A DNA stretch of 64,000 nucleotides. Origin: Psammoneis japonica. Taxonomy: Eukaryota. The stretch lies in NCBI GenBank assembly GCA_008632985.1, contig QPGO01000283.1, positions 1 through 64,000 on the forward strand, given 5' to 3'. Made by a program: the position numbers and the translations under genes. The notes below the pieces were generated by a model. It was not told the origin of the DNA. It did no database searches and worked only from the letters and a program-made list of their open reading frames with translations. This document shows positions 1-29,939 of this stretch, in pieces (the first letter of the stretch is position 1; the number at the start of each line of letters is the position of its first letter).

Positions 1-1010
1 CCAACAGATGCTGCTCTGGCTCTTTTGGGGGGTGCCATCTTGCCTCAGAGACACCAGCACCTGTGTTTTTGGCTGAGCATTCTCCTGACATGCTTGCCAA
101 TCTTCCTTGTGGTTTCCACACCAGGACCTGCCTGTCATCCGGACTTAGCAATGGTGTCATGCACCCACTCCTTCAAATTTTTTGTGCTTCCACATTCAGC
201 TGTGTCCTTGCTCACATTTTCCAGGACTTGTGTTTGAGTTCCATGGCTTGCTGACAGCTGCACACTCTGTTTCACTGACCCTGACACAACCTTGCCACAC
301 CTTCTTTTGGCAGACTCTTGCAGCTTCTTCAACAGCAAGGCCCTCCAAAGACCATTTCTTTGCCCTTCTTCAGCTGGCTTGTTTGGTGCAATCTGCCAAC
401 ATGAGGTGTGCCTTTGGATTCCTGTGAACTTCCCACCTTTTCCTTTGGATTTCTGTCAACTTCCCAGCCCTTGTCTTTGGATTTCTCACAACTTCCCAGC
501 ATTGTAACAACACCAATCCTTTGGGTGTTGTGCCGTGCCTTTTTGGCTTCTGCGTTGGAGCTTTGTGGCTTGCCAACCAGCATGCGTGGTGTGGTCTCAC
601 TGACTCCCACACCTGACCACGTAGCTTGCAAACAAATTGTGCCAATGCCGTGGACCACTGTTGCCATGCTGGCCTGGTGCAGAAGCTGAAAAGTGAGTGC
701 AAAACCCACAACTCAATCGGAGCTGCTAATGCAAACTTGCTTTGTTGTCCACAAATGTCAGCATGCCTTTCCCCTGCAACTTTGTCTGTCTGTCCCATGA
801 AAAACACCTCTGACCCCAATGTTTCAACATGTTTCCAGGTTGTGAGCATGGTTCCTGTGTGGACAGTGACAAAACAGAGCAGTGGCATGGTGAATGGGTT
901 GTCTAAACCATTTCCCAAGCCATCATAACAAGCAGCCATGTGATGTGTGACAGCATCAATTGCTGGAACCAGGCTGCAATCAACTGTGAGGTTTTCAAAT
1001 TGCCACAAGG
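1..1010 (-). repeat. Decayed dispersed repeat of unknown family, homologous to 47330-48130
   Basis: 85-510 aligns by eye with 47425-47850 (gacatgcttgccaatcttcc... vs gacatgcttgctgatcttcc...). Both give related minus-strand peptides (xLADCxKQAS, TLGSExxF). Confidence 0.6.
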
Positions 1011-1889
1011 GCTCTGAACATTGTGGCATCCTTTGTGTGCACCACCAACCTGGTGATGTCAAAAAATCTCAATCAAAAGCAAAACAACAAGGTGCACACC
1101 TGCTGCTCATTTTGTCTGCTGCTTGCTTTGTCATTTGCTCTGACAACAGCACAGCCCATGTCCAACTGCATGAAAAACCTGAAGTGCTGGGTGAGCAAAT
1201 GTGGTGTTTGCTCTTTTGATTTTTTGGGAGTGTGCGTGTGTTCATGTGTTTCACAAACTTTCAAGGTCTTTGTTTGGTGACGGTGATGCCAATGCTCAAG
1301 CTTTAAATTTCAAAGTCTTTAAAGAACTCTGGGAGCTGGGTGGGCTGCCTCCCAATCTTGCAAAAATGCCCAAGGTGGGTGCCCTTGAAACTCCAGTGAC
1401 AGCAAAGTGAAAATCCATTGTGGAAAAATGGAAGATGTCAGAGACTAAACTTCAAGTTTGCTCCCACAGCAAGTTGTCCCTTGGTGGCAGCCCACTTCAG
1501 CATGCCTCAAACTGGCATTGTTGCAAGGCACTCCAAGGTGAGGAAAAACAACAGAAATCAAAAACCTGGAAATGCTTTGCACAACTTCTGATCCAACCAT
1601 GGAGGAGGTGACAGAGTTAAGTCTGTGGCTGGGTTGAGCCCATTGTGTGCCAAGATGGTTGCAGGAAATGACACTCTTTTTTTGCCCCTGATCATTGGGG
1701 TGTGCAAGAATCATTGCCACAGCAAGCTTTGCATGGTGGCAAGTCCACAACCACAAAGGACAAGGAGTCAATGAAAAGTGCACTCTTTGGCAAGATCACC
1801 TCTGACAATGAATCTGGAGCACTCATTTCACCATCTTCTTTCCCAACTCTCAATGTGCCAGCCACTGCACTGCTTCTGAAATGACGTGG

Positions 1890-2400
1890 CAATTGACAAC
1901 ACTGTGCTTCTTTCACAAAACTGACTCTGGAACACTCACATTCTTGACAACTCTGCCATTGATGCAAAACACATTCCCTGGACCTTCAACTGGTGCATCA
2001 GAGCATGCATTGCAGTGATCAAGGCTGGTCATTTGAGCAACACTGGAGATGCAAGTTGGTCCACAGAGACAACTTGAACTGTGTGTGTGGGCTGTTCCAT
2101 GTCAGCTCCTGGTTGCTTCATGTCTCATCCTGTTGTTTTTGCTTTGTTGCCTTGGCATCCTGGCAAGGGGAGCATTCAGGCATGTTGCATTTTGCCAGGC
2201 TCTTTGGAAGCACACCCAATCTTGCCATCCATTGCAGTTTCACAAAACTTGTGCAACCAAATTGTTGACAGCATTTCAGGAGCAGCCATGCCTCAGCAGA
2301 TCCTTGGTGGTCCTCCATGTCCTTTGCCACAGGCATTGGCTCAGAGTCTTCATCTGGCACTGCAGGTGGTGTCTTGGAGAAGTCCACTCACTCTGAGGTT
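1890..2400 (-). pseudogene. Copia GAG-pre-integrase / integrase N-terminal fragment
   Basis: ORF 2118-2387 reads QQFGCTSFVKLQWMARLGVLPKSLAKCNMPECSPCQDAKATK, matching the Copia pre-integrase pattern H.RFGH.SF.KLQ.MA..G..PK.LA.C..P.C..C. Confidence 0.7.
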
Positions 2401-2449
2401 AAACTTGGCAAGGTGCCCGTGTCTCCCTTGTGCTTGCCATTCATTGTCA

Positions 2450-2670
2450 GTCCATCTAAGTCAAAAACTGCTGCCGTGGACCCATCACCTTCCCCAGGTG
2501 CTGACCCCAAGTCTTGCAATTGGTTTTGGCTCTCCTGCTGGTTTGCTGCTCCTTGCATGGTGCATTGGTGTCATGTCTCTTCTCATCTTCGTCTTGGTCC
2601 ATCTGAGTCAAAAACTGCCACCATGAACCCATCCCCTTCCCCAGGTGCCAACCCTGAGTCTTGCAATTGG
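2450..2670. repeat. Direct repeat, about 74-bp unit at 147-bp spacing
   Basis: gtccatctaagtcaaaaactgc...tcttgcaattgg (2450-2523) recurs at 2597-2670. Confidence 0.75.
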
Positions 2671-3056
2671 CCTTGGCTTGCAGGTCTGTCAAACAAATGA
2701 CGACCTTACACTTGAGTTTGCATCATGCAAAAGCACTCAGTCATGCATGCATTGCAGACATGGAGCAATGGCCCCTGTTGATTGATCCAATTGACTGCAA
2801 TTCGAAAGGAGCATGAAATGTTCAGAATCCCTCTGTGTTGAGTGTTGAAACTGATCTTTTCAATGCTCTGGGCAAATGGACAATTCAATCCACTGGCACT
2901 CACAATTTGTGAACTTACTTCACTGCAACAACCAAGCTCTTCATCAGTTCAAAGACCTTGGTGAACATTGTTGGCAGATTCCAATGGTCAGCAGTTGGGT
3001 GTTTTGATGCGCTTCCTCTGGACTGAGGACTGAAACAAAAGAGACAACCAGTTGCA

Positions 3057-4255
3057 ATGGCATTTTCTCTGACACCTGCTCAGGCCATCACAGGCATTCT
3101 TGATTTTGTTGAGAAGGCTTGCAGAGCTGTCTGCAAGGTTGACAGAGCTGTCTGCAACAAGACAGTTGAGAAGCTCATGGAAAATGGCTTCAACTGCACA
3201 CAGCAGAAACCATTTCAGTTCCTCAAGACCCTCAAAGAGATCAAGCTGCCACAAATGGTTGGAATGAAGATGATGGGATCTTGATGATTCCCAATGACCT
3301 GACAGACATCATGTCCGACACCACCAATTTATTGACACACCACAATCAAATTGAAATGGATCTCATCTGTGATTGCAAGCACGTGCACATCAATCAACTG
3401 GTGAGGCCAGCAAAAGACATGAGGATGCTGTGCCATCTACTTGTGAGTGCACTTTCTGAAGAAGGAAAAACCAGAATTTTGGTCTGGGGAAAGCAATGTA
3501 AAATTGTCAAGAACAACAAGATGTGTCTCTCAGGAAAAATGCTTCTGTTGAAGGTGACAATCAGAGAAAGGCACCTCAACACCAATGCCACTGCAATGAG
3601 CATGAGGATGAAACTCAGCAATCTTGACAAGTGTGTTGGCACAGCATTGAGCAATGTTGTTAAATGCAACCAATGCATGCTGCTCTTGATGCAAGCTCTC
3701 AAGTTTCATGGTGAGACAACGGAAGACCTTCAATTGAACTTGTTTGAGGGACACCTTGTGGCATCCGACAAGACATTTGTCGATTGTGTCCATCACAAGC
3801 ATGATGAAGGAAATGACATGACATGGATCCCAACAAACTTGTGAGCCTCATGGTCAACAAGTGCAAGAAGATGGTCAAGACAGAGGAATGGAGTGCACCA
3901 TCCCTCAATGAGGAGAACATTCTGGCTCCAGAAGTGAAGGTCAAAACCCTCAAGAAATCATCTCGATGCAAGAAAACTGATTCCAAGAAGAAGGGAAATC
4001 CAAAGGGCCAGAAGAAAGGAGGGAAAAAGACTCACTGTCCCAAGCCCAATTGGTTGGAGAAGGATGAGACCCATGAATGATCAACTTCATGAGCCCCAAT
4101 GTTAGAATGACAAGCCACATTGTTGTTGGGCTGTCATGAAGACATGGGCAGAAAGTGTGAGGAAAAGTGGCAGATCCACAAACCATCAGCATGTGAAGGA
4201 AAAGCCTTCCTTGCTCAGAAACTTGGTGGCACAAAACATCCTTCAGAAAAGAGAA
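3057..4255 (+). pseudogene. Copia (CoDi-like) gag, frameshifted; interrupted at 4256 and resuming at 11331-11450
   Basis: MAFSLTPAQAITGILDF...LLKVTIRERHLNTNATAMSMRMKLSNLDK...GETTEDLQLNLFEGHLVASDKTFV...EWSAPS is a typical diatom Copia gag. A Lys/acidic tail continues beyond the nested element. Confidence 0.75.
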
Positions 4256-4440
4256 TGACAGAACATTGAAGGGCAATGATGATGATGACATGAAAGACTC
4301 CCCAAGCACCAGGACTGTGACAACACGAGCACTGGCAAAAGAGAATGAGAGTCAGATCTCAGAGAGATCTGCTTGTCTGTCTAGAATGGTCTGGCATCGT
4401 CCACACACAGTCTGCCCATCCTGCTGTTAGCAGACTGACA
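4256..4440 (-). repeat. 3' LTR of Copia 4256-11330
   Basis: aagggcaatgatgatgatgacatgaaagactc...cagactgaca matches 11160-11330. The adjacent acctcccctg is a PPT on the minus strand. Confidence 0.85.
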
Positions 4441-4499
4441 ACCTCCCCTGATCTGGAATGTCCAAAAGCTGGAAGACAATGCAGATCAACCAATGAACA

Positions 4500-7400
4500 G
4501 GGATGATGTGAAAGAACAGACCAAATGACAAAACGCAATGTCCAGACCCAATGTGCAACAACCAAAAGGGCAATCAGCAGCAGGGATGCCACCACACAAA
4601 AAATGTCAACGGCAGTGTCCCATCATTTGTTGAGCATGCGATGGTGAGTGTAAAGCACCCATCCCAGAGCCTTGGCAAGGTCATCACTGGGATCAACAAT
4701 GCCAGGGATGTGTTGGGTGGCAATCTTGCCAGCCTCCTTCTAGTCTTGGATCATGAAACATTGAACGTTAATGTGTCGCGAGCACTCTGCAGGGACAGAA
4801 TGGTTGATGATCTTTGTTGCCTGCTCATTGTCAATGAATGATGGTGTGGGTCCCACCTGGGGAAACCCCAGTTCATGGAGAACATGGCAAAGGAAAAGGA
4901 CATGCTTGGAGGTGGTTCCGGTGGCATGGAACTCTGCATCTGTAGAACTTGCAGCAGCGACCAATTGTGTCTTGCATTGGAAGGACACAGCGGCACCAGC
5001 AAGCATGCAACTGTGTCCCACAGTGGATTGGTGGTTGCAAAGGTCATTTCCATGCACAGCATCTGGGAAAGCAAGGAGCTGGTGATCACACTCCACAGTG
5101 GGAAAGGACAGCAAGGTGGGATCATCAATCAACCATTTGCAAGGACATTTCAGCAGGCCAGGGTCCAACTTGGTCTTCTTGCAGTTGAGTTCCCAATTCT
5201 TGGTGTGTTGCAGACACTTGGCAACACCCTTGAGTGCATTGTGATGAGCCACAGAAGGACAAGTGGAGAACTTGAACAGGGCACCTGTGGCATGTCTAAT
5301 GTCCAAATGGCAGACAACACATGCATGCAACAATTCACCAAGTGGACTGTGATGACCAAAGCCAGCTGCTTCCTTTAACTCTGCATGCTCCAAAGTGCCT
5401 TCAGCAGGACCAATGGTGGCACACAATTCATGGATAGACTCGACAGGCATCAACATTGCCTTGCAATCAGTGGTGGGTTCATCTGCAGCAGGTTTGATCC
5501 ATCCATGGGAGACAAAAACATGGTCAATGTAGCCACAGATGGCAATGCCAATGGAGTCATCACACTGGTGAATGTCAACACCATTGAAGTCTCCAATGAG
5601 GCCAAGACACTTGAAGGGTGGACCAGCTTCCAAAGGAAGTTGGAGAGCTTTGCCAATCTTGTCATAGATCTTGAGCACAATGGCTTCTTTGGGACATGCA
5701 ATTGAAAAATCATCAACCTGGTGCAAAAGCAGTGCCTCGTGTCTGTTGAAGGCAGCGGAGCAAATGCACTTGTTGTGGGCAGTGTCATGGAACAAAAGAA
5801 TCACATCAGAGAGAATGCCATTGATGTGATTCTCCCAGAGCACGCCAGCTTCTGGGTGTCCTTGGAGAGCATGTTGCATTGGAAGAACCACACTCAGATC
5901 CAACTCAACTCAAAATCCAGACTTGCACCATGTTGCACAAGCTTCATCAACCGCAACATAAACAGAATGAGAAGGCACTGGAAAGTGTGCAAATGCATCT
6001 TGTGCATCGCCTCCACAAATGCGACAGCTCAGAGTCACAGCAAGGGCAAAAAACATCCGGCAGACAGGTCATCAACACACAAAGAATGAGCGGAGTGAAG
6101 GAATGGTGTGTGCCATCATGCTTGAGGTCATGCTGCCAATGGGGATGGAGGACCACAGCATCCTTGGGGCATTTGATGGGTGCACCAAACATGCCAAGCT
6201 CGTGAAATTGATCAAATTGCTTGAATTCACTGGCATGCCATTTGGGGCAAGAGGGTAACTTCTTGAGATGATGATGGGTGAAAGCACCCAATGCTTGTTC
6301 CACTGGAGCAACAGTGTGAGATGAAATGGTGTGTGGGTTCATGACACCATTGTCATGATCAATGTAAAGTGGTGGGGGTTCATCAACATCATCCAAACTG
6401 GAGAAGTCAGCATCAGGGTGTTGAATTGCTGCAATCGCTTGAGTGTCAGCCGGAGAAAAATTCTGGCACATGTTCCTCATCAGGATCCAGTGCAGGAGCA
6501 AAGATGTTGCACTCTGCCAAAGCACATTGTGCAATGCCTTAGAGTCAAGATGGCATTGGGGAGTAAATTCAATCTCAAAATGTGTCTTGTCTGAGTCATG
6601 CATTGCTTGCAACCACTTGACAGCATCATCCACAGTAAAAACACTTTGGTCGTCAATGGAGACAATGCATGCACCCAAAATCTTGTTGTGAGTCACTTTC
6701 AAAGAAGAAAACAAGTGAGCAGCATGGGTGCCATGTTGAATGTCCAAGACACAGACACATTGACAGAGCTCATCGGTGTGGAGGGTCATGCCAAAAGTAG
6801 AATCAGTGAACAGACCCTTCATCATGTGAGTGACAGTCTTGGCAAAAGGGTTGCTGACAAAATGAAACTGCTCCACAGTGGTTTCCTCAGATTCAGTTGG
6901 AATGGGTTCACCGGCTTGAGCACCTTCCAAATGAACCACATTCAGGGGAATGGAATCATGGTCCAAATCATTCACCCCCTCGTCAAATCAGACATGCTTG
7001 GTGGTCTTGACACGAGATGTCTCGGGGTCACACTGAAGGATGTTCTTGGCAGTGTCAGGCAGGTGTCCCAAGAAAATCCCCTTGCAAGAGTTTGTTCAAA
7101 ACTTTGCCCTCTGATGGTTTGATGCTCATGCCCAAACGTGGCAACCAAAAGTCCAGAATGCAGAGAAATCATGTTTCTCACCCACAGCAAGAGCAATCAG
7201 AGCAGCTTCCCATCCTTTCAATGATGCAGCATTCTTGATCCGCAAACAATGGTGAAAAGCACACGGCCAAAACTTTGTGGGCAAATGAGCACCTGTCAAT
7301 GTCACCCGAGTGGCATTGTGGCAATGGTCAAATGACTCTTCTCCACTGGGCCACTCTGATTTGAAGCATCCTCTTTTCCAGTGGGACAAATCACACAGTG

Positions 7401-8565
7401 GAAGTCATCCTCAAAAAGTCACTGAACTGCTGGGTTGCAATGCAACTTGCTGCCTTGATCCAGAAAGACACCTTCACCCAGACATTTTGGTGAGTGCTCC
7501 TCCAGAAAATGGTGAGTCCAATTCAAAGGGGGCAGCTTTGGAAACACAAGCAGCACCATGAAGACATTTTGCAGCATCATCACAGACGGTGATCCAACAA
7601 GTTTCAACATGATCAACCAAGCATTGTTCATTCTTGGAATGCAGGCCAGAGAAAGAGAAATCAATGGCAAGGCCTTGGCAGGGCTGGGTTGCAGTCATCG
7701 TAGAATTTGGATGAGTGGCTGCCTTGGTCTGTTTAGCTTGTGTGCAAGTGGGACAGGTGTCCAAAGGGGATGTGCCATGAGCAAGCTTTGGAACACCATC
7801 AACATGTTCATGGGCATGATGCAGATGGTGATCACTGGGGTGGCCAAGGTGTTGGTGCCACAAGAGTTGTTCAGTGTCTGCCTTGGTGAGAGACTGAATG
7901 GGGATCATCTTCTTGGCATGTTCCTTGAAAGGGACATCTTGGCAGACACGAGGCATTGATTTACATTCTTCATGCAAGAGGTTGTGTTGGGAGTCATGAC
8001 ATGTTTCAATCATGTGTGCCAACACAGCTTTGCATTCATCAGCAAATGAAGGTTCACGCTCTTTCAATTGTGCTGTTGACTCATCAAGAGCTTCATTGGA
8101 TGTTGGAGGTGTGAGAGGGTGCCCACAACATTTGCCATTGATTGATTGTCCATGGATGACAACATCCTGACTCTTGCGCAGTTGATGACATGCCATGCTG
8201 AACTTGCAGGTGCCCAAATTGTGGAACTTGAGGATGCAATCAACATTGTGGTCCTTGCCATGCCATCCATTGGTGAAAGCAACAAACGTTCACCAAACAG
8301 GGTGGAATGAATCTTGGGATGACAGCAAGTTCAAATTGGCATGCAGGCCCATCTCAGGGGGGTTTTCCATGGGAATGTGTAGGTGTCCAAAGCCAAATGG
8401 CATTGCTTCATGACCTGATGCCAGATTAACAGCAAGTGGACATGGATTGTCCAGTGTAAAATCTTGGTGTTGGTGAAGGAGGTCAGGTTCACCAGTGCAC
8501 GCAACATCAGCACCAGCATCCAATTGATCACATTGTTCATCAGGTGCAAAGGAAATGGCACTCAC
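4500..8565 (-). pseudogene. Copia pol (PR, integrase, RT, RNase H), with multiple stops and frameshifts
   Basis: ALQGHPEAGVLWE, LLHQVDDFSIA (RT), AFPDAVHGND and AAASSTDAEF (RNase H), AHLPTKFWPCAF (INT). Confidence 0.85.
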
Positions 8566-11145
8566 TTGAACCAGTTCACTGTCAATGTGATCTGCCTCAG
8601 AAGCAAATGCAATGGTTGGTGTGACAGAAGTGACTCAAACAGAATTGATCTCCACCATCCCTTCTTCGTGGTTGATGCTGTTGCATTCAAAGTCAAACAA
8701 TTTTTCTGATTCGACAGAGGGTTGATGTTGCCTCCCCTGCTCTAAAGAATTTATGGCTGGATCATTGTCCGGCAGGGTGCTGACATCTGGTGTCAAGGAT
8801 GGCACTGGAGATTGTTGGTTGTCCTGTGTTGTCATCAGAGAAAGAGGTGGAGCAATGGCAGGTGACAAAACTGGCAGCCCCTCTTTCACAGTCACCCCGT
8901 GTCTTAGTGAGGAGAAAATGGGCTGTGTTGCAGATCCAAAACTGACTGCAATGGCCCCATTGAAAATCCGGAGACTTGGTGCTGGCACTGGTTGCACCAT
9001 CTGGAGTTTCCTTGGCAGATGGCAACAAACCTTGAGGTCCTTGGAATGTCACAGCCTGCATGGCTGCCGCCCACTTCAAGAACCGACAAAAGCAAATGTG
9101 GAAGCCTTTGATGTGTTGAGTGTTGTTCAATGCTGGGCAGTCATCAAACAAATGGATGCCTGAACAAACTGTGCAAGTTTGGTTGGTTGCTTCCTGTGGG
9201 TTGACCTTGAGCTTGTAGACAGAGGCAGCGCAAGCATGATGGAGGAGGCGATCCTCATCAGTGAGAGGCACATCAATGCCAGCCAATTCTTCACACAGGA
9301 TGTTAAATGTGTTCTCACTTGGTGCAATGGCATCATTGGGGATGTTGTTAGGGTCAGGAGTGTTGTCAACATGAGCCTCCACAAGAGGTGCTTCCAGAAT
9401 CTGCAAAGCATTGATCTCAATGGTGGCGCGGCAAGTGTTGTCTTGATTGTGGTCCCATTTGTGGCATGGGTTGCGAACGTTGGTGCAATTGGAGACAACA
9501 GGACTGTCAGATTGATGCAGGAAGTCTGACAGTGTCTCAACAATCTGGGCATCCATGTGCTTCTTTGGCAATGCTGGAGACTTGCATTTGTCATGTGCAG
9601 CACAAGACAAAACTTGGAATGCCTCATGTTCTTGATGAAGACAGTCATCTCACATGAGTCATCCAATGTAGAGTCCACATCAAAGACACAAGCACAGTGC
9701 AACTGTAGAAAATCCTTGAAAATGATGTGGTGGTCGGTCAGCAACAAGTTTCCTTGCGCAGGACAGGAATCCACCAATCCAGTGGCTTTGTCATTGAAAG
9801 CCAGATGATTCTCACATGGAATTTGCTTGAGTGCTTTGTGTCCAATTTCACAGCACAAAGCAACAACACGATGGCACTTGCTGTTCTTGGGGAACACATT
9901 TGCCTTGGAGAGAATCTTGTGGAGAGAGCTCTCAGCTTCCTTGCAATGTGTGTGCATGTGTTGGGGTGAGTCATCATCCTTGCCATTGCCAATTGTGAAT
10001 CCTTTCTCACCACCGTGGGTCTTGACAAAGCACAGCAAAGGTTGCATGCAGGATCCAGAGTCAAAACAGCAATGCTGGAAATTTTGATGCCAGCCAGAGA
10101 GAGTTGTCATGACACACAGGCAGCTCTCTGAACAACATCTTCTGATCAGGAGTTGATTGAGCTTATGATGAACAGAGTGCCACCATTGAGGATGATGTGG
10201 TCAGAGGCATCAATGCAATGGTGGCATCCATGCTCACATTGGGTGAGTGAACTTTGCAAGGCAACTTTGCCCAATTCCTTGCGACTGCAATGTTCACGAA
10301 CATCCTTGGATAAGGTGTTGGGATGCTTTGATGCAACAGCCACTGCAGCAGCACCTCCTGCAGTCTTCCCAGCAGCAGTCAAAGGCAGAGCTTGGCTTGA
10401 TGCAAACTTGTTGAGTGCTGTAACTAGATCATTCACACCAACAGTTGATGATCCCACAGACATCAAAGATTGGGGTGCAGATGGTGTCTTCCAGGTGCAT
10501 TCTTTGAGAGAGAATTTGCTCCAGTCTCTGTAACTTGATTTCATGGCAGGATCAAAGTGCATGTGCTGCATTGACATGAGAACATGGAGAGATTGTTCGT
10601 GTCTCTGAAGAGACATCTTGATCGTGGATGAGATAGCTTCAGGGGTCAGACAAACCACACGGAGCTTGTCAGGGTCAACAATGTGAAAAGGAGTTTCACC
10701 CACAATTGTCTTGATGGACTGCATGTCCATGTGGCAATCCACCGTGTGTGGTGGAAAAGCTTGATTGATGAGAAACTCTCAGAACAAGTCCACAAAATCC
10801 TTCTTGGACCAAGCATGCTCTGGGCATTCAAAGAATGGATCAAGATCGAATGTGGGGTCCATGTGCAGCATGTTCAGGCCTGTGCAGGAATGTGACAGAA
10901 TAGGATGTGCTTGGAATTCATGACAGATCTCTGCAATTGACATGGGAGTGGCCATTGTGTGGCCAGGAGACATCATGGTTGGACTTGGTGAAAACATTTT
11001 TAGTCATGATGCACACACAGAAATCTGGTGTGTTTCTACCAGCTTGAAAAATGCCGGGAAAGCAAGGGAAAAAAAATCCTTTGGGGAACAAAGATGGGGC
11101 TTGCTTGATCGGCTTACAAAACAAATGAATTGCAGTGTTGCAGGC

Positions 11146-11159
11146 ACAAGGCCACAACC
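11146..11159 (-). promoter_or_regulatory. Decayed primer-binding site, half-tRNA-iMet type
   Basis: The minus strand directly after the LTR reads ggttgtggccttg, resembling the copia-type half-tRNAiMet PBS GGTTATGGGCCCAG with a TA>TG change. Confidence 0.5.
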
Positions 11160-11330
11160 TGACAAAATGCCAAAGGGCAATGATGACAATGACATGAAAG
11201 ACTCTCCCTGAGCACTGGGACTGTGACAACATGAGCACCAGCAGAAAAGAATGAGAGGCAGATCATCTGTCTAGAATGGTCTGGCATTGTCCTTGTGCAG
11301 TCTGTCCATCATGCTGTCAGCAGACTAACA
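11160..11330 (-). repeat. 5' LTR of Copia 4256-11330
   Basis: Minus strand runs TGTTAGTCTG...TTTTGTCA and is homologous to 4256-4440. Confidence 0.85.
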
Positions 11331-12199
11331 AAGAATGATGAGCCAACATTAACCAAGAAGATCCAAAAAGACCTCAAGTCCCTCAAGCCATCAGAAGCTC
11401 CTCCTCTCACTGCCACCACAGATGAGATTGAGTCCTCCAATGAAGAATGACTGGCAGAGCAAGGTGACAAGCCTGATTGTGATTGGGGAATCCAGGGTGT
11501 TGCCATCTGCGTGCATCATTTGCTGCATGGTTTACAACTGTGGTTGTGGCTGTGCCACTGTTGGTGGTGCTGCCAATGCAATTTTAGTGGCTGCAACCTG
11601 CAACTGGATCTCAATCACAGTTCATGAATTGTTGAGGGAAGCAAATTGCAAACACTCTTCTGAACAAATTCATTGCCCCAGAGCTCACATCATGTTGCTG
11701 ACAATTGTCATTTTCCATCTCATTGTTTTCTTTGGCAAGAACCCTGACAACCCCAATCTGTGCTGCTTTTCATGATCAAAACATTGGACAAAAGGTAGAA
11801 GATTGATGTGGCAGGCCCAGTCAAGCATGCAATGGACAGGAAAACAATTGATTGATTTGTCTAAAACAAAATCAATCAACTGTCCACAGCCAAACAATCC
11901 CTGAGAGGGAGAATCAGGTGAGCAATTGTGTGAAACACCTTTGCCTTCTGCATCTTGTAGATTGCACTTTGTTTCACATTTCACATTGCAATTGCATTTC
12001 TTGCCCCAGACTGCCTTGTCCTTCTCTGATGCAGTGTCTCTGTCTGGTGGGGCAATGATCTGACATGGTGCACCAATCCACCCACAAAATTCTTGCCCAT
12101 CGTGCCAAAAATTTCTTGATTTTAATTTAAAAACTCTTGCACCCTGTGCCAGAAATCTTAGTTCTGATGTAAATTTTTTGTCACGCATCACAAGAAAAT

Positions 12200-12395
12200 T
12201 CAAACATGACAAACATGCGGATGATGTTCCCGACATTTTCAAGTGCAACACTTGGCTGCTTTTTACCATGAGACAATTGCCTTTTGGCCAATCCCCGATT
12301 CACATTACTCTCAAACTCTGCTTTAAATACAACAAGCACACGGATGATGTTCCCGACATTTTGCAGTGTGACACTTGGTCACTTTTCACCGTGTG
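12200..12395. repeat. Pair of about 70-bp direct repeats at about 125-bp spacing
   Basis: ggatgatgttcccgacatttt...acacttgg occurs at about 12219 and 12342. Confidence 0.7.
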
Positions 12396-13403
12396 ATAAA
12401 TTGTGCTCCAGTCAATGCCTGACTCACATTTCATTTTTGTTGTTGCTGGTGCAGTGAGTTGAATCTTGGTTAATTTCTCTCTGCTGTTGTCACACACTGC
12501 TGTTTGCCAGTGAACATCACTGTTCTGCTGCCCGTGTGTTCATGAGATCCTCATCCGCTTCTGTGGGTTGTTGTTCACTCTGCCTCCTTGAGAACCCATT
12601 CATGTCAAAGCACTGTTGTCAGTGGCTGTTGCTCCCAGAGTCCCCACCTCTGTGTTCCCATGTGCATTGTTCCTTCCTGTTGCTCCCTCTTCCCTGTCAC
12701 TCCCATCAGTTTTCAGAGCAGCCCATCCCTTCATGTCATCCTTCTTTTTCTTCTTTGTTTTCTTGCCACACTTGCTCTCCAATTTCTTTGTTTGCAGGTG
12801 GTGTGCATCGACTCTGCTGTAATCTGTTCTCTCCTGTGCTGCTGCACAGTGTAGCTCGTTGCATTTGTCGATCCCATTCTGGTTCCATCCTTGATTTTGC
12901 TTTGCTCCCTTTCCCTCTGGAATGTGCACTTGGGGGGCCCACCTTTATTTTTTTTGCTAAACGTCCTTTTTTTTGCTGGAGGCAAGCCCAATGTTTACAC
13001 ATGGACATTAATGTGTGTCACATTGGGCAATCAATGCTGATGCCTTATCCATACATAACATTGTAATAAGTGAAAAATGTAAACAGCCGACGCCGTCCCA
13101 TGTGGGAAGATGGCACAGGCTCATCCCTTCAGAACCACTAAATCAACCACCACCACTGTCAGGCATCCACTGCTAGCCCGTGATCAAGACTACCTACATG
13201 TCACAGACGAGTCCGCCAAAACATCGCGCAGAGAAGTGCCGCCACCCCCATATATCCTCGTGGCAGCATACATACACTATATACATTATTTAGCTCCACC
13301 GCAAAAAAAAATACACTGCATGTTGAGTAATATAAAATGTGAGGATCCTATAAGTAACAACACACCTTTGTGCACGAATGTGTTATATTTCAAATTTTCC
13401 ACA

Positions 13404-13790
13404 TGCACTATGCTCGAAGAACGAGTGTAGGGCCCTAAACGAAAGTAGAACGAAGTTCAAAAAGTGAAAATTATGAGAATTATTTCTACGCGATCATTTT
13501 GGGTTTCTCCGAACGGGTTCTCAACAGCCTAAACCTTTTGTACTGCTCCTACAGACAAAAGGCCTTTCGGAGAATACGATCGTGACAACAGATTGTCCGG
13601 ATACGATTGACATTGACACATAAGATGTCAACATCATCGTACAGTCGCATTTGCGATTCTCGACATCCGATCAACTCTGTGTGATTGATCTGTCCTTCGT
13701 ACGAACCCACGATTGACGTACGATTGGAATATAAATTTGTTTTATATATACATATACATATATATAACATACATAACAACGCATGTTGCA
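13404..13790 (-). repeat. 3' LTR of Gypsy A
   Basis: Matches 30329-30707 (taaacgaaagtagaacgaagttcaaaaagtg...). Confidence 0.92.
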
Positions 13791-13816
13791 TTCGTCTCCC
13801 TAATTGCACATTAGAG

Positions 13817-14242
13817 TCAGTCGTTAAACGGTATTATCCGACGGATATTGACAGTGTCAATGACGTCACCGCGTTTGATCTGCACTGTGCCATTAGTGTG
13901 TACCGTTGTTATCACATACGGTCCAACATAGGGCTGTTCTAATTTCTGCGAGTCTTTTTCGAGTAGTATCTTCTCTCCTACTCTGTACGTATAAGGAGTA
14001 TGTCGAGCATTCTCTCGAGCGTTATTTTTATTTATGATTTCTTGTTTTCGCTGCTGGATTAATTTCCAGTCTGCGACATGTTGGACGTTAAATATCATGT
14101 CTCTGTTAAAGACCAAATGTCCAGGTGTAGCTTGCGTAGTGGTATGATAAGTAGAACGTACTGCAAATGCTGCCGCTGACAATGTTCCAGCGAAGGGATC
14201 CTCAGTGTCCAGAGGTGTGTGTTGCAAATCAAGTGTACGAAT
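13817..14242 (-). pseudogene. Gypsy A integrase C-terminus
   Basis: AAAFAVRSTYHTTTQATPGHLVFNRDM...EQPYVGPYVI (GPY/F motif). Continues ...HQVLGNV from 19350. Confidence 0.9.
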
Positions 14243-15147
14243 CAATGGCAATCTTTCGGCTCTCAGAGTCATTCTGGCCAGTGTGGCGGTTAAATTTAAT
14301 TAACACTGATGTGAGAAAACAGAAAATTCTATTTAACACTTTTTTGTCGTGCGACACTTGCAACGCCAAAATTCCGGGTAACTTTCGAAATCAGATCTGC
14401 GATCCGCATTGGACCGCGAAGCAATGGCGCTGCATCGTTTCGCATCATGGGAGGATGCTGAGCCAAATCCCAGTCACCCTTGCATCAGGATCGACTGGTT
14501 GCGGGCCAGCATGTCCACAGGTGAATTTGTTTTTGTGGATTGCCGTGCCACAGTGCTTGAGAACGAAATCAACAACGTTAACAGCGTCTGTGCCAGAGCA
14601 GTTGACGTTGCAGCGAATGGGTTGATGAGAGTCAATCTTTGTCCCACTGACGCGTTCCAGACGTAGGTGGGAATCCGTGTGACATTGGGCCCGTAGAATT
14701 CTACGTGCGAGCTCCGTAGTAAAATTGTGCGGTAATTAGAATGTCAATGTTCGCCAACAGAAAATGAGGCAATTTTGCGAACGCACAAACTCGCACATGA
14801 TTGAAGTACATCGATTTTTACTTGGCCAGTTACATTCTTCAGACATTGAAGAATGTGACTGGCGCATTGTTGTTTCTATGTGTGCGTCATGTAAAACGTC
14901 TGGGGCTTCGCAAAACAGCAAGTCTGGACAATTTTTTTTAAATGTCACACATAGAAATGTACGTGCAAAACACACGACGGATGATAAAAATTATTTGTGT
15001 CACACGTCAGCACTGCGAGCTCCCACCTGGGGCTGGAACGCGTCCACTTTGACCGATGCCATCGGAAGTAGACTGTCAAGTTTTCGATTAACGATGTCTC
15101 ATGAGCGATGCATCCCTGAAGTTCACTAATCAGACTGGAGCCTTTGG

Positions 15148-16190
15148 GTGGCGAAAGACAAGATTGTGGATTTGTCTTTTGTGTTCCACGCCAATCAAAT
15201 TAGGCAGGAGGAGCATTCAGTGCAAGGGATGGAAAGAGCCCGGATTTTTCGATGCAGGCTCAAGGGACCAGATCATTCTGAAATTGCTCATGTCAGAGGT
15301 GAGCTTTTCAAATCCTTTCCATGTGAGCTCGTGTCACATTCGACGTTGTTCGTTGATCCGAGCACCTCGTGTTTGGTGTTTGATGGTGTCTTGGATGTTT
15401 CCAAAGCACTTGTCCAAATCCTCAACTGTGGGCGAGAGTCCACAGGATGATTCTATCGAGACAGGCGGTGCATTCGAATTTCTAATGTGGCATTTGAGTT
15501 CATCCGACGTGCCACTGTTTCAACAAACCCTCGGGATGCGGTGTCAAGAATTCGACATGAGAAGAAGGTGCTGCCCGGCCTCGATGTCAAAAAGGTTCGC
15601 AACGACCGCAAGTTTGATGTTTTGCATTATGAAACAGAGGATCAGCTGACAACCCTGTCCGAACTGTTGGGGGAGTCTGCTGTGGGTGGGTTGCGAGTGA
15701 AACACCGACTCAAAGTTGGCGCCACCACCCACCTCAAGCTGAACGACTGCATCAATCACGTCACTGGCTCTGAAGAAGAGGAATTTGAGTGTCAAAAAAG
15801 AACAACCCATCGTGGCATTGACATTCTCCGCAATCGCCAGGAGACAGTGGTGGAGGTACGATGCGCCCTGTTCATCCTTGACAAGTCGGTCAGGACAGCT
15901 GATTTCCCCAACATGCGATTGCAAAAGCTTGTGCGCTGCCAGAATCCATTTGGAGCCAACAATGGCGATGTGGGTATCAATTTAGATCAGCAGAATCAGC
16001 ATGACACCCTCTTACGACCCGGCATCAAGTTTGATCACGTGGGCAACACGTGCACCATTGAATCGGTGAATGCTGAGGCGGGAGTGGTCAGTGCACGGCT
16101 TTCCAACAGTGTTGACGCACCTGCACAGTTGTTTGACACACCAAGTGCATGTGCGGCAGTCAAAACTAAATGTAACTTAAACAAGCATGC
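15148..16190 (+). pseudogene. Second (accessory) ORF of the DNA transposon, function unknown
   Basis: ORFs 15148-15450 and 15487 onward share a frame and are separated by one TGA. Protein-like composition up to about 16190, tail-to-tail with the transposase. Start and end are approximate. Confidence 0.55.
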
Positions 16191-16392
16191 ATTCCGTCAG
16201 CACCAGTGTCAGTGGCACAACATTTGTTGGCTGGTGCTGCTTGTTGTTCTAAGCGTGAAAATCTTGTTTTTCACCTTCCATCCCAACATTCCCTGCCGGA
16301 TGCACCGACTCGCCATCATGTCCCGACAGCCACATCATTCGTCGTTGAAGCCATTTCGCTGTGGCGCGCAGCTTGGACGCGTTACCTTTCCC

Positions 16393-19145
16393 TCATCCTA
16401 CAGCACCGCCATGATTCGTCCTTTTGAAGAAGAAAGCCTTCAGCATGGCATTCAGATGCTCCCAACCTTGCTGACTGTAAATGCAGAGGTTTCTCCACTT
16501 GAGCATGAATTCTTTCATGTGGCCGCAGCCAAGCATGTGAATGTAATTCGAAAGTCCCTCAACTCCATAGAGATGCGTCCAAATCTGGAAAAAATCATCC
16601 GCTTCAAACTGATGCTCTGCAATGTCGTCATTGGACAGGTCATCTTTGGATCTCATTATTTCTATAGAACGCTCAAGGTGCGGCACACACACTGTCCATT
16701 GGTCTCGACGGTCCTCATCAACAACTGACAGGTGCACCAACTCGTCTATGCCGTCAAATGTTTTTCGAGTTCGTGGATTATCCATGCGCAGCTGCCCAAC
16801 CTCCTTCTTGTTTTCCTTCAAAGGAAATCTCCATTGTGATGGGTTGTCATTGTAGGAAAGGAGAGTCTGGTTGACAATTGACTCAATGCTTTCAACATGA
16901 CGCTTGATGCGTCCCATCGCGCTCCGCACCTCTGGAAAAAGCGAGCCGTCTTCACAGTTTGCAATCCCCTCCTCGAATGACATTGTGAGACATTTGAGTT
17001 TTAGCCGAGTTTCCATGTGTAATGCGCAAGGGATGGCCGACATCAATGCGTAGAATGCCTTTTCATTCGGTTCCACATGTGCCAAATCTTCCTTGAGAGA
17101 GACAAGTAATTTCTCACTGCCGATCCTCTCCCTTGATCGTTGACTTTTGTCTTCCATGGAACCATAAATGCTCATCTGTCTGATGTTCAACTCTCGGTCC
17201 AACAGTTCACCAAAGTTTGTTGCTTCATCCACAGCCTCCGGCTGGAAATCGATCGACAAAGGGTCACGATCGCCTGCTTCCGTTCCTGTTTCAGACATTC
17301 TTATCTTAGTTTTTCCGTCTTCGGGCAACACATCGCCTGTGATTGTTTACAGACGAGCCACCTCCTCGTCCAGTTTCTCAATAAATGTTTCATCACCGAC
17401 ATCTTGGTGGTGGCAACGCCACTCGTCGTCGCCCCCGTGCAATCCTTCGCACCGTTTGCAAAGGTCGTCGTTCGGGACGGCGCAGTTGTCGGATTTGCAT
17501 GGGCAGCATGGGCAAAAGTAATCTTTCACCTTGCAAGCTCCACCTTTGTGAAGGCCCTTTTGATGGGCAATGTGGTCACCCGTGTGTGACACTTTAAGTG
17601 GTTCTTTGTCATCATCCAGAGGTTCCTCCTCGCAGTCGTTCATGAATTTATAGAAATCTTCAAATGGCTCGAAAGTCTCTTTGCTCTCCTGACCTGTCAT
17701 CACTTGAAATGGGAAACAGCGGTGGCTGGATTGTGCTGTTGATACACCGCTTGTGACCACCGAGCTGGTGAGTTTGTCCATAATTTGACACCTGCCGCGA
17801 CGATGTCATCACGCTTGTTCAGTGTCGCGCCATCAACAGCAGCACTCACTTCCACGCGTCTACTGGCTAAATCGTCCCACAGGCCGTGGGCTTTTAACAA
17901 TGTGGTGAGTGTTGGGTTTGGCTCAAATTTGAAGCCTTCGCCATGTTCTGTGTTAACCATTGACATGGATGCTTTCCCGTCTTGCGCCGCAGCCTCGACT
18001 TTTTTTGCTGCGCCGTACAGAGCTTTGGTTGACGGTGTCACACCACGAAAATACCTGGCGCCACCACTTTCCACCAACCGAAGAACCTCCACTCCTGAGT
18101 ATGACAGCTTTGATCCAGCAAGATCCATGGCTCTTAGAAGTTTAGAGGGTGTGAATGCATTCTCCTTAAACCATTTCCGAGACCGCTCGATAACGGGGCT
18201 TTTGAGAATGCCACTGCAGAAGTCGTCTGAGAAAATGGCATCCACCACCATCGTGTTGGTCTTCTTTATCCCGACCTTTTTACATTGGCGGTTTAACCAC
18301 TCTTCTAAAAAGGTTTGTAGTTCTTCCTTTGCATCCACTTCATTGCTTGATGCTTCCTCATCTTCTTCAGATTCTTCTTCTGTTTCTTCATAAGACTCGT
18401 CGTCGTCGTCTTCGTCTTGGCTTGCCTGTGCCACCATCTCTCCTTCCAGAAGCCTCCTTCTCTTTTTCGGGTGACCCTTGTTTTTGCGGTTCATTGCTGC
18501 AATTTTTTCACGGGGAATCACGTCCGATTTGTGGCAGTGCGCTCGACTCTTCGTCTCTAGCTTCTGTGTGGGGCCAATCAACGAGGTGTGATTGGCTTCA
18601 CACCGACACCTCGCGCTGCTGCGCTTTGCCTTGCCGCTAAGGACATGCTTCTCCTTGTCCCACAGGTCACAATGATGGCATAGAAAATGTCCTTGATCTC
18701 GAAATTTAACATGCCTGTTGATGCCACAGTCGCAGCAAGTGACAGCAGCACTGCCCCTTCTTCGAAGCGTGCGACTACGAGCAGACCTAGATGCCGGCAA
18801 ACAAAAGCCACGTGTGATGACTCGTCTGGCTCGGCTTGGCTGCTCTGCACTTGTTCTTGAGGTGGTTGGAGTTGGGGTGACTGCGGCAGAATGTCCAGTG
18901 CTTCGTCCAGCAAGCCTCTTGCTGGCACGCAGTGCAACCGGAGCAGTTGCACTCATCGTATCTCGTGTCTCTTGGTTGGCGCCATTGTCAGCCATGGAAC
19001 CATCGGCATGTTCAGCGCCTCGTCTGTTCTCATCAGAATCTGGGTTCGTAATTTCTACAGGCTCCCACGCAGGATGTGCTGAGGATGTTAACGTCCCGAA
19101 CCCCAATCGGAACACCATCTTAGCCAATTCTATTTCTGCGAACAA
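16393..19145 (-). pseudogene. DDE transposase of RAG1-core/Transib/Chapaev type (frameshift near 17782, in-frame stop at 17347)
   Basis: Motifs in order: AAVDGATL, SSHRCFPFQVMTGQESKETF, HTGDHIA, YFCPCC, IPCALHM, SNYIHMLGCGH, YSQQGWEHLN. The N-terminus has a Cys/His cluster, a basic stretch and an acidic tract. Confidence 0.75.
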
Positions 19146-19349
19146 AAAACGACTTGACTGTAAACTGATCAGGTGTACTTTTCTTCAACCCATTTGCAAA
19201 AATACACCTGACCCGATAACAGTCAAGTCTATTTTTGCAAAAATTGTGTGAACATTAGAGTTTCAGTACAAAAACGTGTAGATTCTACAGACAGCCATGA
19301 GCAATTTTGGCGTTTTCCGTGAGGGGTCATTTTCGAAAGATTCCTATTG

Positions 19350-22030: not shown

Positions 22031-23105
22031 TCATTCCTCGGAATCGCTGTGCGTCAATTTTTCAAATTGACAATTCTCCTCGTCAAGGGTGTCAGAATCA
22101 CAATCTTTGCTCTTGCGCTTCTTGTCGTTGTTCGAAGAACTCGCCTTGAGTATTTTTTGAACTGCTTGGACCACCATGGCATTCAACTCTTCTTTGCGAG
22201 TGGCATTATCGTTATCGCGACGAGACCACGTGCGATTGCCATTTGAACGGCGCCGTTTTGGATCGGGTTCATAGTTCCCACGGTGTTCTTTCGCAAGTCT
22301 TTTAATCGACCAGCACTTGTCCGTGTTATGAGTGGATTTTTCGCACAGAATGCACCACTTATCGGACTGAGATTTTTCGGCACCATGTTGGTGACCATTT
22401 TTGGAACCACTCTTGGCTTTCGATCCAGCACTGCTGATGGGATCAGCCTTGGCATGAATGCCGTCAAATGCGTCCTCCGCGACCTCCAGGCGCTCCAAAA
22501 ACTCAACCAACTCGTCACAGGTGTGTTTCAAAATTTCGAAACCCTGGACGGTCGACTGACGCTGCCACTTGTGAGGTGCAAGGTTGAAGAGGATGTCCTT
22601 GCGCTCGTCCTCCTCGATCTTCTGATCCTTTCCAAAGGGCAGATGGAACATGAGATCTTCATTAACTTCCTGGACCCAGGCAGCAATCTCGCGTACTTTC
22701 ATTGACTCGGGCTTCTTGAGATTGCGACGCAAATAGCGTTTCTGAACCGAAAGTGCGTTCTTGGGAAACACATGCTTCGTGAGGTGTTGCAGACATTTCT
22801 CAAAGCTTCCTTCCGTAGATTCGTCTTCAATGTTCGCCGCCGCATTCTCAAAAGCACGTAGAGCGTCTCCTTGTAGCAACACACGCATGAGACGGAACTT
22901 GTCGACTTGCTCACTGATGTTCTGGCCCACTAGAAGTTGATCGTAGCTCTTGAGGAATTCGATGTACTTTGGGACACCCTGCTTCTTGTGGCACTCGACA
23001 TTGATGGTGCAGGTGCGGCTGTCCTTCTTCTCAGGATGAAAACACTGCTCCATCTTGAGGTGCTGACTCGGTTTGAGGCTCTTCGGCTCAGAATTCGATT
23101 CCAAC
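22031..23105 (-). pseudogene. Gypsy A gag; 5' end split off by the Copia insertion
   Basis: LLQGDALRAF, HVFPKNALSVQKRYLRR and a CCHC knuckle CILCEKSTHNTDKC. Confidence 0.85.
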
Positions 23106-23383
23106 TGACAGGATTTGAATGGGATTTAGGTGCGCACGAAATGTCGCGCGCCATTTAGTTTGCCACGCACAGTTTTGTGTGCTCTTTAGTTCCGCGCATA
23201 CGCGCGCGATGTAGTTTGCTTTCGAGCCACTCGGCTCACAAGAACAATAACAGCAGCCCGATTGTGCTGACTTACACGTCTTTCGGCTCCTGCAACGGTC
23301 TGTGAGCGGAGACTCATCTGCCATTTAGACAGCAGCAAGGAGTCATTGTTTGAATTCTTGCCATTTGCCTTCAATTTCTGTCA
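23106..23383 (+). repeat. 5' LTR of Copia 23106-30217
   Basis: tgacaggatttg...caatttctgtca, repeated at 29940 and 62774. Confidence 0.95.
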
Positions 23384-23400
23384 GATTAACAGTCTTGCTC
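23384..23400 (+). promoter_or_regulatory. Primer-binding site, probably complementary to the anticodon arm of tRNA-Asn (half-tRNA primer)
   Basis: gattaacagtcttgctc directly follows the LTR. Its reverse complement ...GACTGTTAATC is an anticodon stem-loop with GTT. Identical at 63050. Confidence 0.6.
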
Positions 23401-24322
23401 ATTGTCAACCCATTGAGCAACCGCCATCGTCGTCGTTGATTTACCGACGATGCTATTTCAATTCTGCGTGGACCTCCACACACATTCTACGTGTACATCG
23501 GCAAGTCTACGCGCATTCAACACCAGGCATCGGCAGGAATTTAACGTCACCGTCAAGTCTCCTTAACGCTGGACATCTGGATTGATTGTGCTACCTTTTG
23601 TCGCTGAAGACATACATTCAACGGTCACATCCAAGTCTATCCTTGATCCTCATCCCTTGACACACCCATTCAACGGTTAACGGTCAAGAACCCTACACAT
23701 TCAAAGATCTTCGTCGCTGAAGACATTTACACACACATGTCTTCACGGCCAAGAACTTGAACCCACTCTTTGGACTACGGCTTTGCTGCCACTCTACAAG
23801 CACACCGAGTCTATTGTACCTGATCTACCCCGGACCACTGGTGCTCTGCAGTTCTACCAGGTCCACAAGGACAACTGTGAGAGCAAGCAGCCATGATTAC
23901 AGCCTACGTTGGGGCGAGGGTTTTTTCCCGTGTTTGTTCGTTCGTCCACAGTGCCTAACGCCTACGTCAACTGGCCAGCCTGATCGGGAAATCCAACCGA
24001 CATAAAAATAAGAACGGTTCGGGGGTCTTGTCCACCTCTAGTCAGCTTACCTGCAGGGGTTTACAACCCGCTGCTCCGCTTGCAAGCAACCCAAAGCGCC
24101 ACTGGCTGCGGGTTCGGACGTGCTGGCACAACTCTATGGACCGGATAGGAAGTTTAGCACTTGACAACGAACGGGATAGCACACCCTGGCGACTTCTGAT
24201 TTTAAGATAGTTCAAGATTTCAAGTCAAGTCTATTTCAAGTCAAGTCCATTCCCACTCAAGTTTCAAGTCTACCTCCGCGTCCTAACAAGAATCGCTTGT
24301 CCTGACACTGCTTTTGTCTGCC

Positions 24323-29935: not shown

Positions 29936-29939
29936 GGAG

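Follow-up and report, generated by a model that had tools for sequence, protein, structure and literature searches.

To our knowledge, no natural enzyme is firmly established as defending a genome by turning A into G in its chromosomal DNA. In the tRNA targets of TadA and ADAT2-ADAT3, the target A34 follows U33, with C next in bacterial tRNA-Arg; the later adenine base editors accept most contexts for A. A TadA-8e A48E editor is reported to prefer YAC (PMC13109818). On DNA, the preference of amphioxus ADAT2 was for GAA and TCG, not TA (PMC10354150); we know of no other eukaryotic ADAT2 that has been tried on DNA. The closest described system is the alga Bigelowiella natans, for which the preprint text of Mettrop et al. 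(bioRxiv 10.64898/2026.01.13.699255) reports that integrated viral DNA underwent de novo TpA>TpG/CpA hypermutation during mutation accumulation in culture lines, describes TpA-poor reverse-transcriptase and DDE genes, and proposes an adenine deaminase. The main text of the preprint holds no flank rule, with no mention of context, flanking, trinucleotide or logo. This 2026 preprint on one alga is the only account of TpA hypermutation known to us, and our literature searches brought up no further case of transposons decaying by TA>TG/CA.

We analyzed a window of 64 kb (the whole stretch of DNA under study), which consists of copia and gypsy LTR retrotransposons nested in one another, with no host gene among them. 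The named relatives of its transposons are diatom sequences, and Pfam gave no match for five of the eight old ORFs of the window. The features are as follows (o/e, observed/expected ratio; LTR values are the identity within each pair).

1..12400, no strand assigned: old retrotransposon DNA, heavily mutated (TA o/e 0.06-0.12, CG o/e 0.09-0.18, TG/CA o/e about 1.8)
4269..11331, minus strand: decayed copia-type element with LTR remnants at 4269-4441 and 11173-11331 (76.6%) and a gag_pre-integrase domain at 7474-8289; Tyr is only 0-0.5% of its translated ORFs
13403..30707, minus strand: gypsy G3, LTRs at 13403-13790 and 30328-30707 (93.6%), RT/RNase H/integrase at 19498-21485; carries nested copia A
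23106..30217, plus strand: copia A, 278-bp TG..CA LTRs (92%), 5-bp target-site duplication CCAAC, pol ORF at 27188-29992; TA o/e down to 0.13-0.32, CG still 0.74-0.83
33549..44563, minus strand: gypsy G1, LTRs at 33549-33967 and 44147-44563 (94.8%); interrupted by G2
34419..39865, plus strand: gypsy G2, 165-bp LTRs (90.9%), 5-bp duplication
41801..43000, minus strand: unmutated block inside G1 (TA o/e 1.06-1.13, CG 1.05-1.25, TG/CA 0.83-0.99)
44600..62700, no strand assigned: second old mutated block (TA o/e 0.06-0.22), containing copia copies D and B
49200-50273, plus strand: old copia copy D, a relative of A
57522-62715, minus strand: old copia copy B, a relative of A
62773..64000, plus strand: copia copy C, from the same family as A (91.5% identical to 23105-24328) and cut by the window end

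Over the 12 and 18 kb of old DNA, TA o/e is 0.06-0.12, CG o/e 0.08-0.31 and TG/CA o/e 1.8-1.9, and more than 90% of the TA dinucleotides of this retrotransposon DNA have gone to TG/CA. The unmutated block in G1 served as the in-window baseline, and 25 related metagenome loci with normal TA o/e (0.60-0.91) as the external one; the GC content of these loci (0.39-0.45) is lower than that of the window, so that the loss of ATAT-type words may be overstated. Tyr content was normal (minimum 2.3%) in every database homologue of the copia and gypsy proteins, with no other mutated lineage among them. Loss of TA and CG and gain of TG/CA track element age: the LTR pairs show about 1-2% transversions with about half of their TA sites changed, and young A and old B differ by 10% transversions, with TA o/e about 0.07. 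At 136 sites one of these two copies reads CA and the other TG, the trace left when an ancestral TA (or CG) is struck independently in each copy. CpG decay is also evident, since 213 of the 302 CGs of A read TG or CA in B. In young copy pairs, 54 of 116 TA sites had changed versus 30 of 146 CG sites, and the sequence pattern indicates that CpG methylation decay is a separate, slower process co-occurring with TpA loss. Contigs of a sequencing run (X1) differed from window positions 24101-44100 at 1633 variable places, 85% of them transitions. Among the 40 variable places listed, 14 were A>G, of which eight were CA in the window versus CG in other copies and two were at TA; these variants were left out of the flank rule because most of the listed A>G places were of the CA/CG type.

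The scaling of TA loss with the transversion clock, seen both in the LTR pairs and between A and B, would be expected from an untargeted context bias, such as damage or polymerase error at TpA, acting genome-wide on all neutral DNA, with old transposons TA-poor only through age. A low-copy stretch at 32.1-33.4 kb is likewise TA-poor, and the window contains transposons only, with no gene as control. We nevertheless consider such a bias unlikely: a 1.2-kb unmutated block lies inside a mutated element, though recent conversion could explain this block, and in the preprint text the B. natans signature is seen only in certain regions and lines, where the rate is 1000 times that of the genome (bioRxiv 10.64898/2026.01.13.699255).

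The specificity of the process was clearest in five young copy pairs, which formed the comparison set for A<>G counts. Such differences depended strongly on the 5' base, affecting 42 of 174 adenines after T, 3 of 324 after A and 7 of 303 after G (OR 34, p=9e-18), as would be expected of A>G/T>C transitions confined to TpA. Even the TAA and TAG adenines changed at 12-20%, versus 1-2% for AA and GA. These counts bear directly on a polymerase-eta-type WA>WG signature, which accounts for the TA>TG direction and nothing more, and which would make AA>AG comparable to TA>TG; the original prediction had likewise named equal frequencies as evidence against itself. The observed 3/324 versus 42/174 refutes this signature. 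Mere selection or chance does no better, as the pattern is age-graded and present in non-coding LTRs, and the contexts of the surviving sites deviate from expectation at p=7e-19 and 6e-10; this whole group of explanations has a negligible likelihood.

These two values come from 195 surviving TAs of the pooled old DNA, which divide into 6 RTAY, 93 mixed and 96 YTAR. The former is the chi-square test against 1:2:1, and the latter the comparison with the window's youngest block (28, 51 and 27 of 106 in the same order). In the unmutated relatives, RTAY, YTAR and mixed sites number 2722, 1581 and 4172. The original prediction, that RTAY is nearly erased and YTAR persists in the old DNA, thus holds far beyond chance, and the TA sites that it named are all present within 1-3 bases (146 ACTTAGC, 727 GCTAAT, 904 TCTAAA, 1304 and 1320 TTTAAA-type, 1618 GTTAAG and 4382 TCTAGA). 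Its description of the survivors was too sharp. Positions 1-12500 retain 79 TAs (TA o/e 0.09), with RTAY at 1 (ATAC 1; ATAT, GTAC and GTAT 0), YTAR at 36 (TTAA 14, TTAG 10, CTAA 8, CTAG 4) and mixed sites at 42; YTAR, said to make up most of the survivors, accounts for only 46%, and GTAA (11), of which few were said to be left, is with GTAG (11) as common as TTAG or CTAA. The same pattern was observed at 44001-62000, where 130 TAs comprise 6 RTAY, 68 YTAR and 56 mixed sites, and the control dinucleotides AT, GC and CG had no comparable R/Y flank skew. The original prediction had named uniform NTAN depletion as evidence against itself, but depletion was far from uniform: survival relative to the unmutated relatives spans 0.004 to 0.255, with about 1% for RTAY, 9% for mixed sites and 23% for YTAR. 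YTAR had been held to be no target at all, whereas its density of 3.15 per kb versus 13.5 per kb in the unmutated relatives amounts to an approximately fourfold depletion, and 8 of 29 YTAR sites had changed in the young pairs.

A model of two independent half-sites fits the survivors roughly (deviance 12.8, df 6, p=0.046; p=0.007 in a second fit), the lack of fit being marginal, and gives decay exponents of 2.5 for TAT, 1.5 for TAC, 0.8 for TAG and 0.6 for TAA, an order unchanged in middle-aged DNA. Simple decay gave a better fit than a hand-calculated equilibrium model with additive rates, which was dropped. Synergy at RTAY (6 observed versus about 14 expected from independent half-sites) was not borne out by the young pairs, in which 11 of 22 RTAY, 35 of 65 mixed and 8 of 29 YTAR sites had changed; RTAY is no faster than mixed sites there, a weaker effect than the survivor data imply. 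The 3' base nevertheless mattered in these five pairs, with TAY changed at 27 of 82 and TAR at 15 of 92 (OR 2.5, p=0.013). In mixed contexts, TAY correctly predicted which pair had mutated in 23 of 34 cases. Where a conserved Tyr codon followed a pyrimidine, it had turned into TGY in 26 and CAY in 10 cases; after a purine the split was even (20 and 20), in line with strand symmetry. With pairs and Tyr codons pooled, TAY fits the mixed-context direction in 49 of 70 cases (p=0.001), although selection in lineages then still active may have influenced the Tyr test, and G1 and G3 have some states in common. A pyrimidine 3' of the target A is thus favoured 2-3 fold, T being at least as good as C, and a purine is still hit. 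The 5'-TAY-3' target proposed for either strand therefore stands as a graded preference of about 2-3 fold, which three tests on the sequence support, and falls in its all-or-none form. The order of the 3' base indicated by these data is about T = C > G > A, and A two bases downstream (+2) appears mildly protective.

Read from sequence, TAY with A as the target and RTA with T as the target on the other strand describe the same base pair and would look alike, and all flank tests here fit both equally. The altered base could then be thymine, with an enzyme modifying T in 5'-R-T-A-3', for example to 5-hydroxymethyluracil or a derivative, and replication or repair fixing T>C. In its favour, dinoflagellate DNA carries 5-hydroxymethyluracil preferentially at TpA. 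This base pairs well with A, and we know of it as no strong T>C mutagen; nor do we know of any such T modification on record in diatom-type hosts, and nothing in the sequence favours thymine as the altered base. We regard a thymine target as improbable beside deamination of the adenine.

The two LTRs of one insertion provide evidence for the timing of these changes. Among the four LTR pairs, 25 of 84 mismatches were TA<>TG/CA, and CA<>TG double differences were also present; A and G2 carry target-site duplications, and the empty G2 site is present in contigs of the X1 run (joint 34414>39866). Because LTRs of single insertions differ at TA, the change occurs in integrated DNA. Both strands were hit equally in the LTR pairs (TA>TG 23 versus TA>CA 23), and no single-strand runs of changes were detected (66 runs versus 68 expected). 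A different source would be ADAR-like A-to-I editing of transposon transcripts before reverse transcription, with new copies inheriting the changes. Among 34 conserved Tyr columns, A and B share 10 mutated positions, which favours this idea and indicates that some changes predate insertion. As the main cause, RNA editing is largely refuted by the TA differences between LTRs of one insertion, the equal damage to both strands, the unaffected AA and the lack of strand-coordinated runs, and we consider it very unlikely.

Taken together, we lean towards a TpA-eroding, TAY-biased transition process acting after integration alongside CpG decay, with a DNA adenine deaminase as its putative agent. On this reading, two kinds of context-specific transition wear the retrotransposons down once they have integrated. 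Besides ordinary CpG decay there is a faster process, which changes A:T to G:C at the TA step and leaves TpG or CpA in place of TpA. The faster process acts on resident DNA and on either strand alike; it strikes TA approximately 10-25 times more often than AA or GA, and favours 2-3 fold an A:T pair whose A precedes a pyrimidine. With two such adenines in every TA, RTAY is erased first, mixed sites next and YTAR last. The agent may be an adenine deaminase, TadA/ADAT-like or of another kind, which would produce inosine in DNA with a 5'-T-A-Y-3' preference and be aimed at DNA that is silenced or foreign, as has been suggested for B. natans. More tentatively, an alga whose transposons are of diatom type may defend its genome, in the manner of RIP, with a natural adenine deaminase that works on chromosomal DNA under a 5'-TAY-3' rule. 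Such an enzyme would be a natural counterpart of the adenine base editors made in the laboratory, and at least two distant eukaryotic lineages would possess one. If so, the measured flank rule is a fingerprint by which to identify the enzyme. The rule supplied here is quantitative (TAT about equal to TAC, then TAG, then TAA) and offers a biochemical standard against which to judge candidate deaminases, or an enzyme that modifies thymine instead. In practice, most TAA and TAG stops and Tyr codons are lost from such DNA, and therefore gene finders will report long false ORFs.

Among known systems, ADAR hyper-editing and APOBEC editing of retroelements produce clusters of deaminase-driven transitions, as proposed for the window. 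However, ADAR also edits after A and on one RNA strand, and APOBEC causes C>T; neither fits, and the marks of ADAR hyper-editing (5' U or A, strand-coordinated clusters, action before integration) were not found in the window. Fungal RIP likewise works in situ, disabling transposon copies through transitions that can be recognized by a dinucleotide signature, but its chemistry is opposite: RIP turns CpA into TpA and makes DNA AT-rich, whereas the window loses TpA and rises in G+C. C>T at CpA with TpA excess was accordingly not seen, TpA being lost rather than gained. TadA and ADAT resemble the process in the T (U) 5' of the target A, which the window also has; they are, however, tRNA enzymes. 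The nearest likeness is to B. natans as described in the preprint text: TpA>TpG/CpA as the only change, on both strands, TpA loss coupled to CpA and TpG gain, and TpA-depleted clusters enriched in CpA and TpG, all present in the window. That text describes de novo mutations in single-copy giant-virus and virophage inserts, whereas we describe a fossil record in LTR retrotransposons, in which the same signature is near completion and arose after integration. Beyond the main text of the preprint, the window adds the evidence from LTR pairs, the rule TAY>TAR and the CpG decay that accompanies TpA loss.

The window consisted of nested LTR retrotransposons and held no recognisable host gene. Self-comparison of the window identified four intra-element LTR pairs and further copies, and Pfam identified the protein domains.

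Elements and domains in the window
4269-4441 and 11173-11331: LTR remnants, 76.6% alike, of an old copia element (self-comparison)
7474-8289, minus strand: copia-type gag_pre-integrase domain in old DNA (Pfam)
13403-30707: gypsy element G3, intra-element LTR pair (self-comparison)
19.5-21.5, 36.3-39.6 and 39.9-40.8 kb: gypsy-type reverse transcriptase, RNase H and integrase domains (Pfam)
23106-30217: copia element A, intra-element LTR pair (self-comparison)
33549-44563: gypsy element G1, intra-element LTR pair (self-comparison)
34419-39865: gypsy element G2, intra-element LTR pair (self-comparison)
49200-50273: D, old copy of the A family (self-comparison)
57522-62715, minus strand: B, old copy of the A family (self-comparison)
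62773-64000: C, second young copy of A (self-comparison)

Target-site duplications of 5 bp flank A and G2, and the empty site of G2 (joint 34414>39866) was present in contigs of the window's sequencing run. The nearest database proteins were unnamed (63-68% identity); the few named relatives were diatom sequences, from Cylindrotheca, Pseudictyota, and Nitzschia.

The observed/expected (o/e) dinucleotide ratios at 1-12000 were 0.06-0.12 for TA, 0.09-0.18 for CG, and 1.80-1.89 for TG/CA, with approximately the same values at 46-62 kb; the younger elements had TA ratios of 0.13-0.6, yet CG ratios of 0.7-1.0. According to the original prediction, YTAR persists and RTAY is erased in the oldest DNA; every TA site that it named was found, and the observation as such was confirmed. 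The 79 TAs at 1-12500 comprised 1 RTAY, 36 YTAR, and 42 mixed sites (RTAR or YTAY), and the 130 at 44001-62000 comprised 6, 68, and 56, respectively. In the pooled old DNA (195 TAs, with 6 RTAY, 96 YTAR, and 93 mixed), class proportions differed both from a 1:2:1 ratio (p = 7e-19) and from those of the window's youngest block (106 TAs: 28, 27, and 51; p = 6e-10). However, to say that survivors were mostly YTAR was an overstatement, because GTAA and GTAG were as frequent as TTAG or CTAA. A larger baseline was provided by 21 of 25 related copia loci from metagenome contigs, after exclusion of four near-duplicates (L007, L009, L013, and L022); it covered 116,840 bases with TA o/e of 0.60-0.91 and 8475 TAs (2722 RTAY, 4172 mixed, and 1581 YTAR). 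Relative to these loci, which exceed the window in AT-richness, old DNA retained 0.9% of RTAY, 8.5% of mixed, and 23% of YTAR sites; NTAN depletion was thus non-uniform, with per-word survival lowest for ATAT (0.004) and ATAC/GTAT (0.009) and highest for TTAA (0.236) and CTAA/TTAG (0.255). Loss of TAA and TAG stops opened long frames on both strands at 1-12500, where 13 frames of at least 150 aa, several of them overlapping, lay in 12.5 kb and gene finders would report false genes. Translated old elements contained 0-0.5% Tyr and raised His and Cys.

At integration, an insertion carries two identical LTRs. Among the 84 mismatches in the four LTR pairs, 25 were TA versus TG or CA and 17 were CG versus TG or CA; further mismatches were CA versus TG, the mark of a single ancestral site hit in each copy. 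When young A was compared with old B, CA stood opposite TG at 136 sites. With LTR pairs and A versus C pooled and identical flanks required in both copies, 54/116 TA sites differed versus 30/146 CG sites (p = 1e-5). Strand outcomes were even (23 TA>TG, 23 TA>CA), one-strand runs along the element were absent (66 runs versus 68 expected), and no transcription-strand bias was seen in either measure. These results demonstrated that the A:T>G:C change at TpA occurs in situ and is strand-symmetric; the LTR-pair differences, the equal strands, and the lack of one-strand runs exclude, as the main cause, pre-integration editing of a single RNA strand. At 10 conserved Tyr positions (27188-29992 and 57522-60200), A and B were identically mutated, and the interior of A was TA-poorer than expected from its LTR divergence. 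Thus, transposition in this family seems to have continued from partly mutated copies, perhaps mobilised in trans.

Specificity was determined from A<>G differences in five young pairs (the four LTR pairs and A versus C), with strands pooled and identical flanks required. Such differences were observed at 42/174 sites after T, 3/324 after A, and 7/303 after G; those after C (32/329) are CpG decay on the other strand. The odds ratio of TA versus AA was 34 (p = 9e-18), and the rarity of AA>AG relative to TA>TG rules out a polymerase-eta signature. Compared with other contigs of the run (24101-44100), 85% of copy differences were transitions; among the 40 differences listed, most of the A>G and T>C ones had CA/TG here and CG in other copies, which is private CpG decay of the window locus, so that this comparison is uninformative on TA.

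Survivors alone leave two options for the deciding base, 3' of A or two bases 5'. Three discriminating tests agree in pointing to the 3' side, as expected from the proposed 5'-TAY-3' target. In the young pairs, the change rates were 5/43 for TAA, 10/49 for TAG, 10/34 for TAT, and 17/48 for TAC, that is, 27/82 for TAY versus 15/92 for TAR (OR 2.5, p = 0.013). In mixed contexts of nine copy pairs (A versus B left out), RTAR became RCAR 8 times and RTGR 6 times, and YTAY became YTGY 15 times and YCAY 5 times; 23 outcomes were TAY-predicted versus 11 opposite (p = 0.06). Columns with Tyr in at least 60% of homologous proteins, and hence with an ancestral TAY, contained TGY 21, CAY 22, and TAY 10 after a purine, and TGY 32, CAY 11, and TAY 12 after a pyrimidine; with states shared by A and B counted once, TGY versus CAY was 20 versus 20 after a purine and 26 versus 10 after a pyrimidine (p = 0.011), counts in which selection in formerly active lineages may play a part and G1 and G3 have some states in common. 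The mixed-context and Tyr tests combined gave 49 versus 21 (p = 0.001). An independent two-half-site model gave a moderate fit to the survivors (deviance 12.8, df 6, p = 0.046); by 3' base, the decay exponents were T 2.5, C 1.5, G 0.8, and A 0.6 in old DNA and again T>C>G>A in middle-aged DNA (1.23, 0.57, 0.43, and 0.30). The 3' pyrimidine preference at TpA is 2-3 fold. The TAY target therefore stood as a graded preference, not an all-or-none rule: YTAR was not immune, given its 23% survival and 8/29 sites changed in the young pairs, where RTAY (11/22 changed) was not above mixed sites (35/65).

An effect of A at +2 went unremarked in the original prediction. TA survival was 0.24 with this base versus 0.07-0.10 with any other; the young pairs showed the same direction, non-significantly (8/58 versus 25/105 changed, p = 0.16). 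Survivors at 1-12400 and 44600-62700 were enriched for A at +2 on the A strand (T two bases before TA), and their commonest hexamer was TGTAAA/TTTACA (16/194).

We proposed that adenine in DNA would be deaminated enzymatically, giving A:T>G:C at TpA. The natural site of TadA is U33-A34-C35-G36 of tRNA-Arg. A thymine-directed modification may act instead, since the TAY-adenine base pair is equally describable as a T with a purine on its 5' side, and the sequence fits both. The mutation process may be aimed at transposons or may act on all neutral DNA, as a window without genes fits either. TA loss tracks a transversion clock (approximately 1-2% transversions in LTR pairs, 10% in A versus B). 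The low-copy segment 32105-33438 was also TA-poor (o/e 0.23-0.36), with a summed contig depth of approximately 170 versus 40,000-130,000 over the copia element; thus, high copy number does not seem to be required. A 1.2-kb block in G1 (41801-43000) was unmutated (TA o/e 1.06-1.13, CG 1.05-1.25) between mutated flanks (TA o/e 0.2-0.48), conserved Tyr codons being intact at 5/5 positions in or beside it and 0/13 downstream. At approximately 41610-41928 there is a rearrangement or joint. A fresh copy likely supplied the block through recent conversion or recombination; alternatively, the block may reflect local protection.

In mutation-accumulation lines of B. natans, A>G and T>C changes made up 230 of the 231 hypermutations, all 230 on TpA, and the hypermutations were limited to integrated giant-virus and virophage DNA; that genome also has TpA-poor reverse-transcriptase and DDE domain genes, and an ADAT2 candidate was named (bioRxiv preprint 10.64898/2026.01.13.699255). 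The reported DNA targets of amphioxus ADAT2 are GAA and TCG, with hairpin loops as preferred substrates (PMC10354150), and thus differ from the TA of the window; TadA-8e A48E prefers YAC, according to a review (PMC13109818). No other reports of TA>TG/CA decay of transposons were found in the literature searched. Taken together, a phenomenon of this kind has one previous description, in B. natans, in a report whose main text presents no flanking-base analysis (10.64898/2026.01.13.699255); new details are the flank rule and the evidence from LTR pairs of in situ action.
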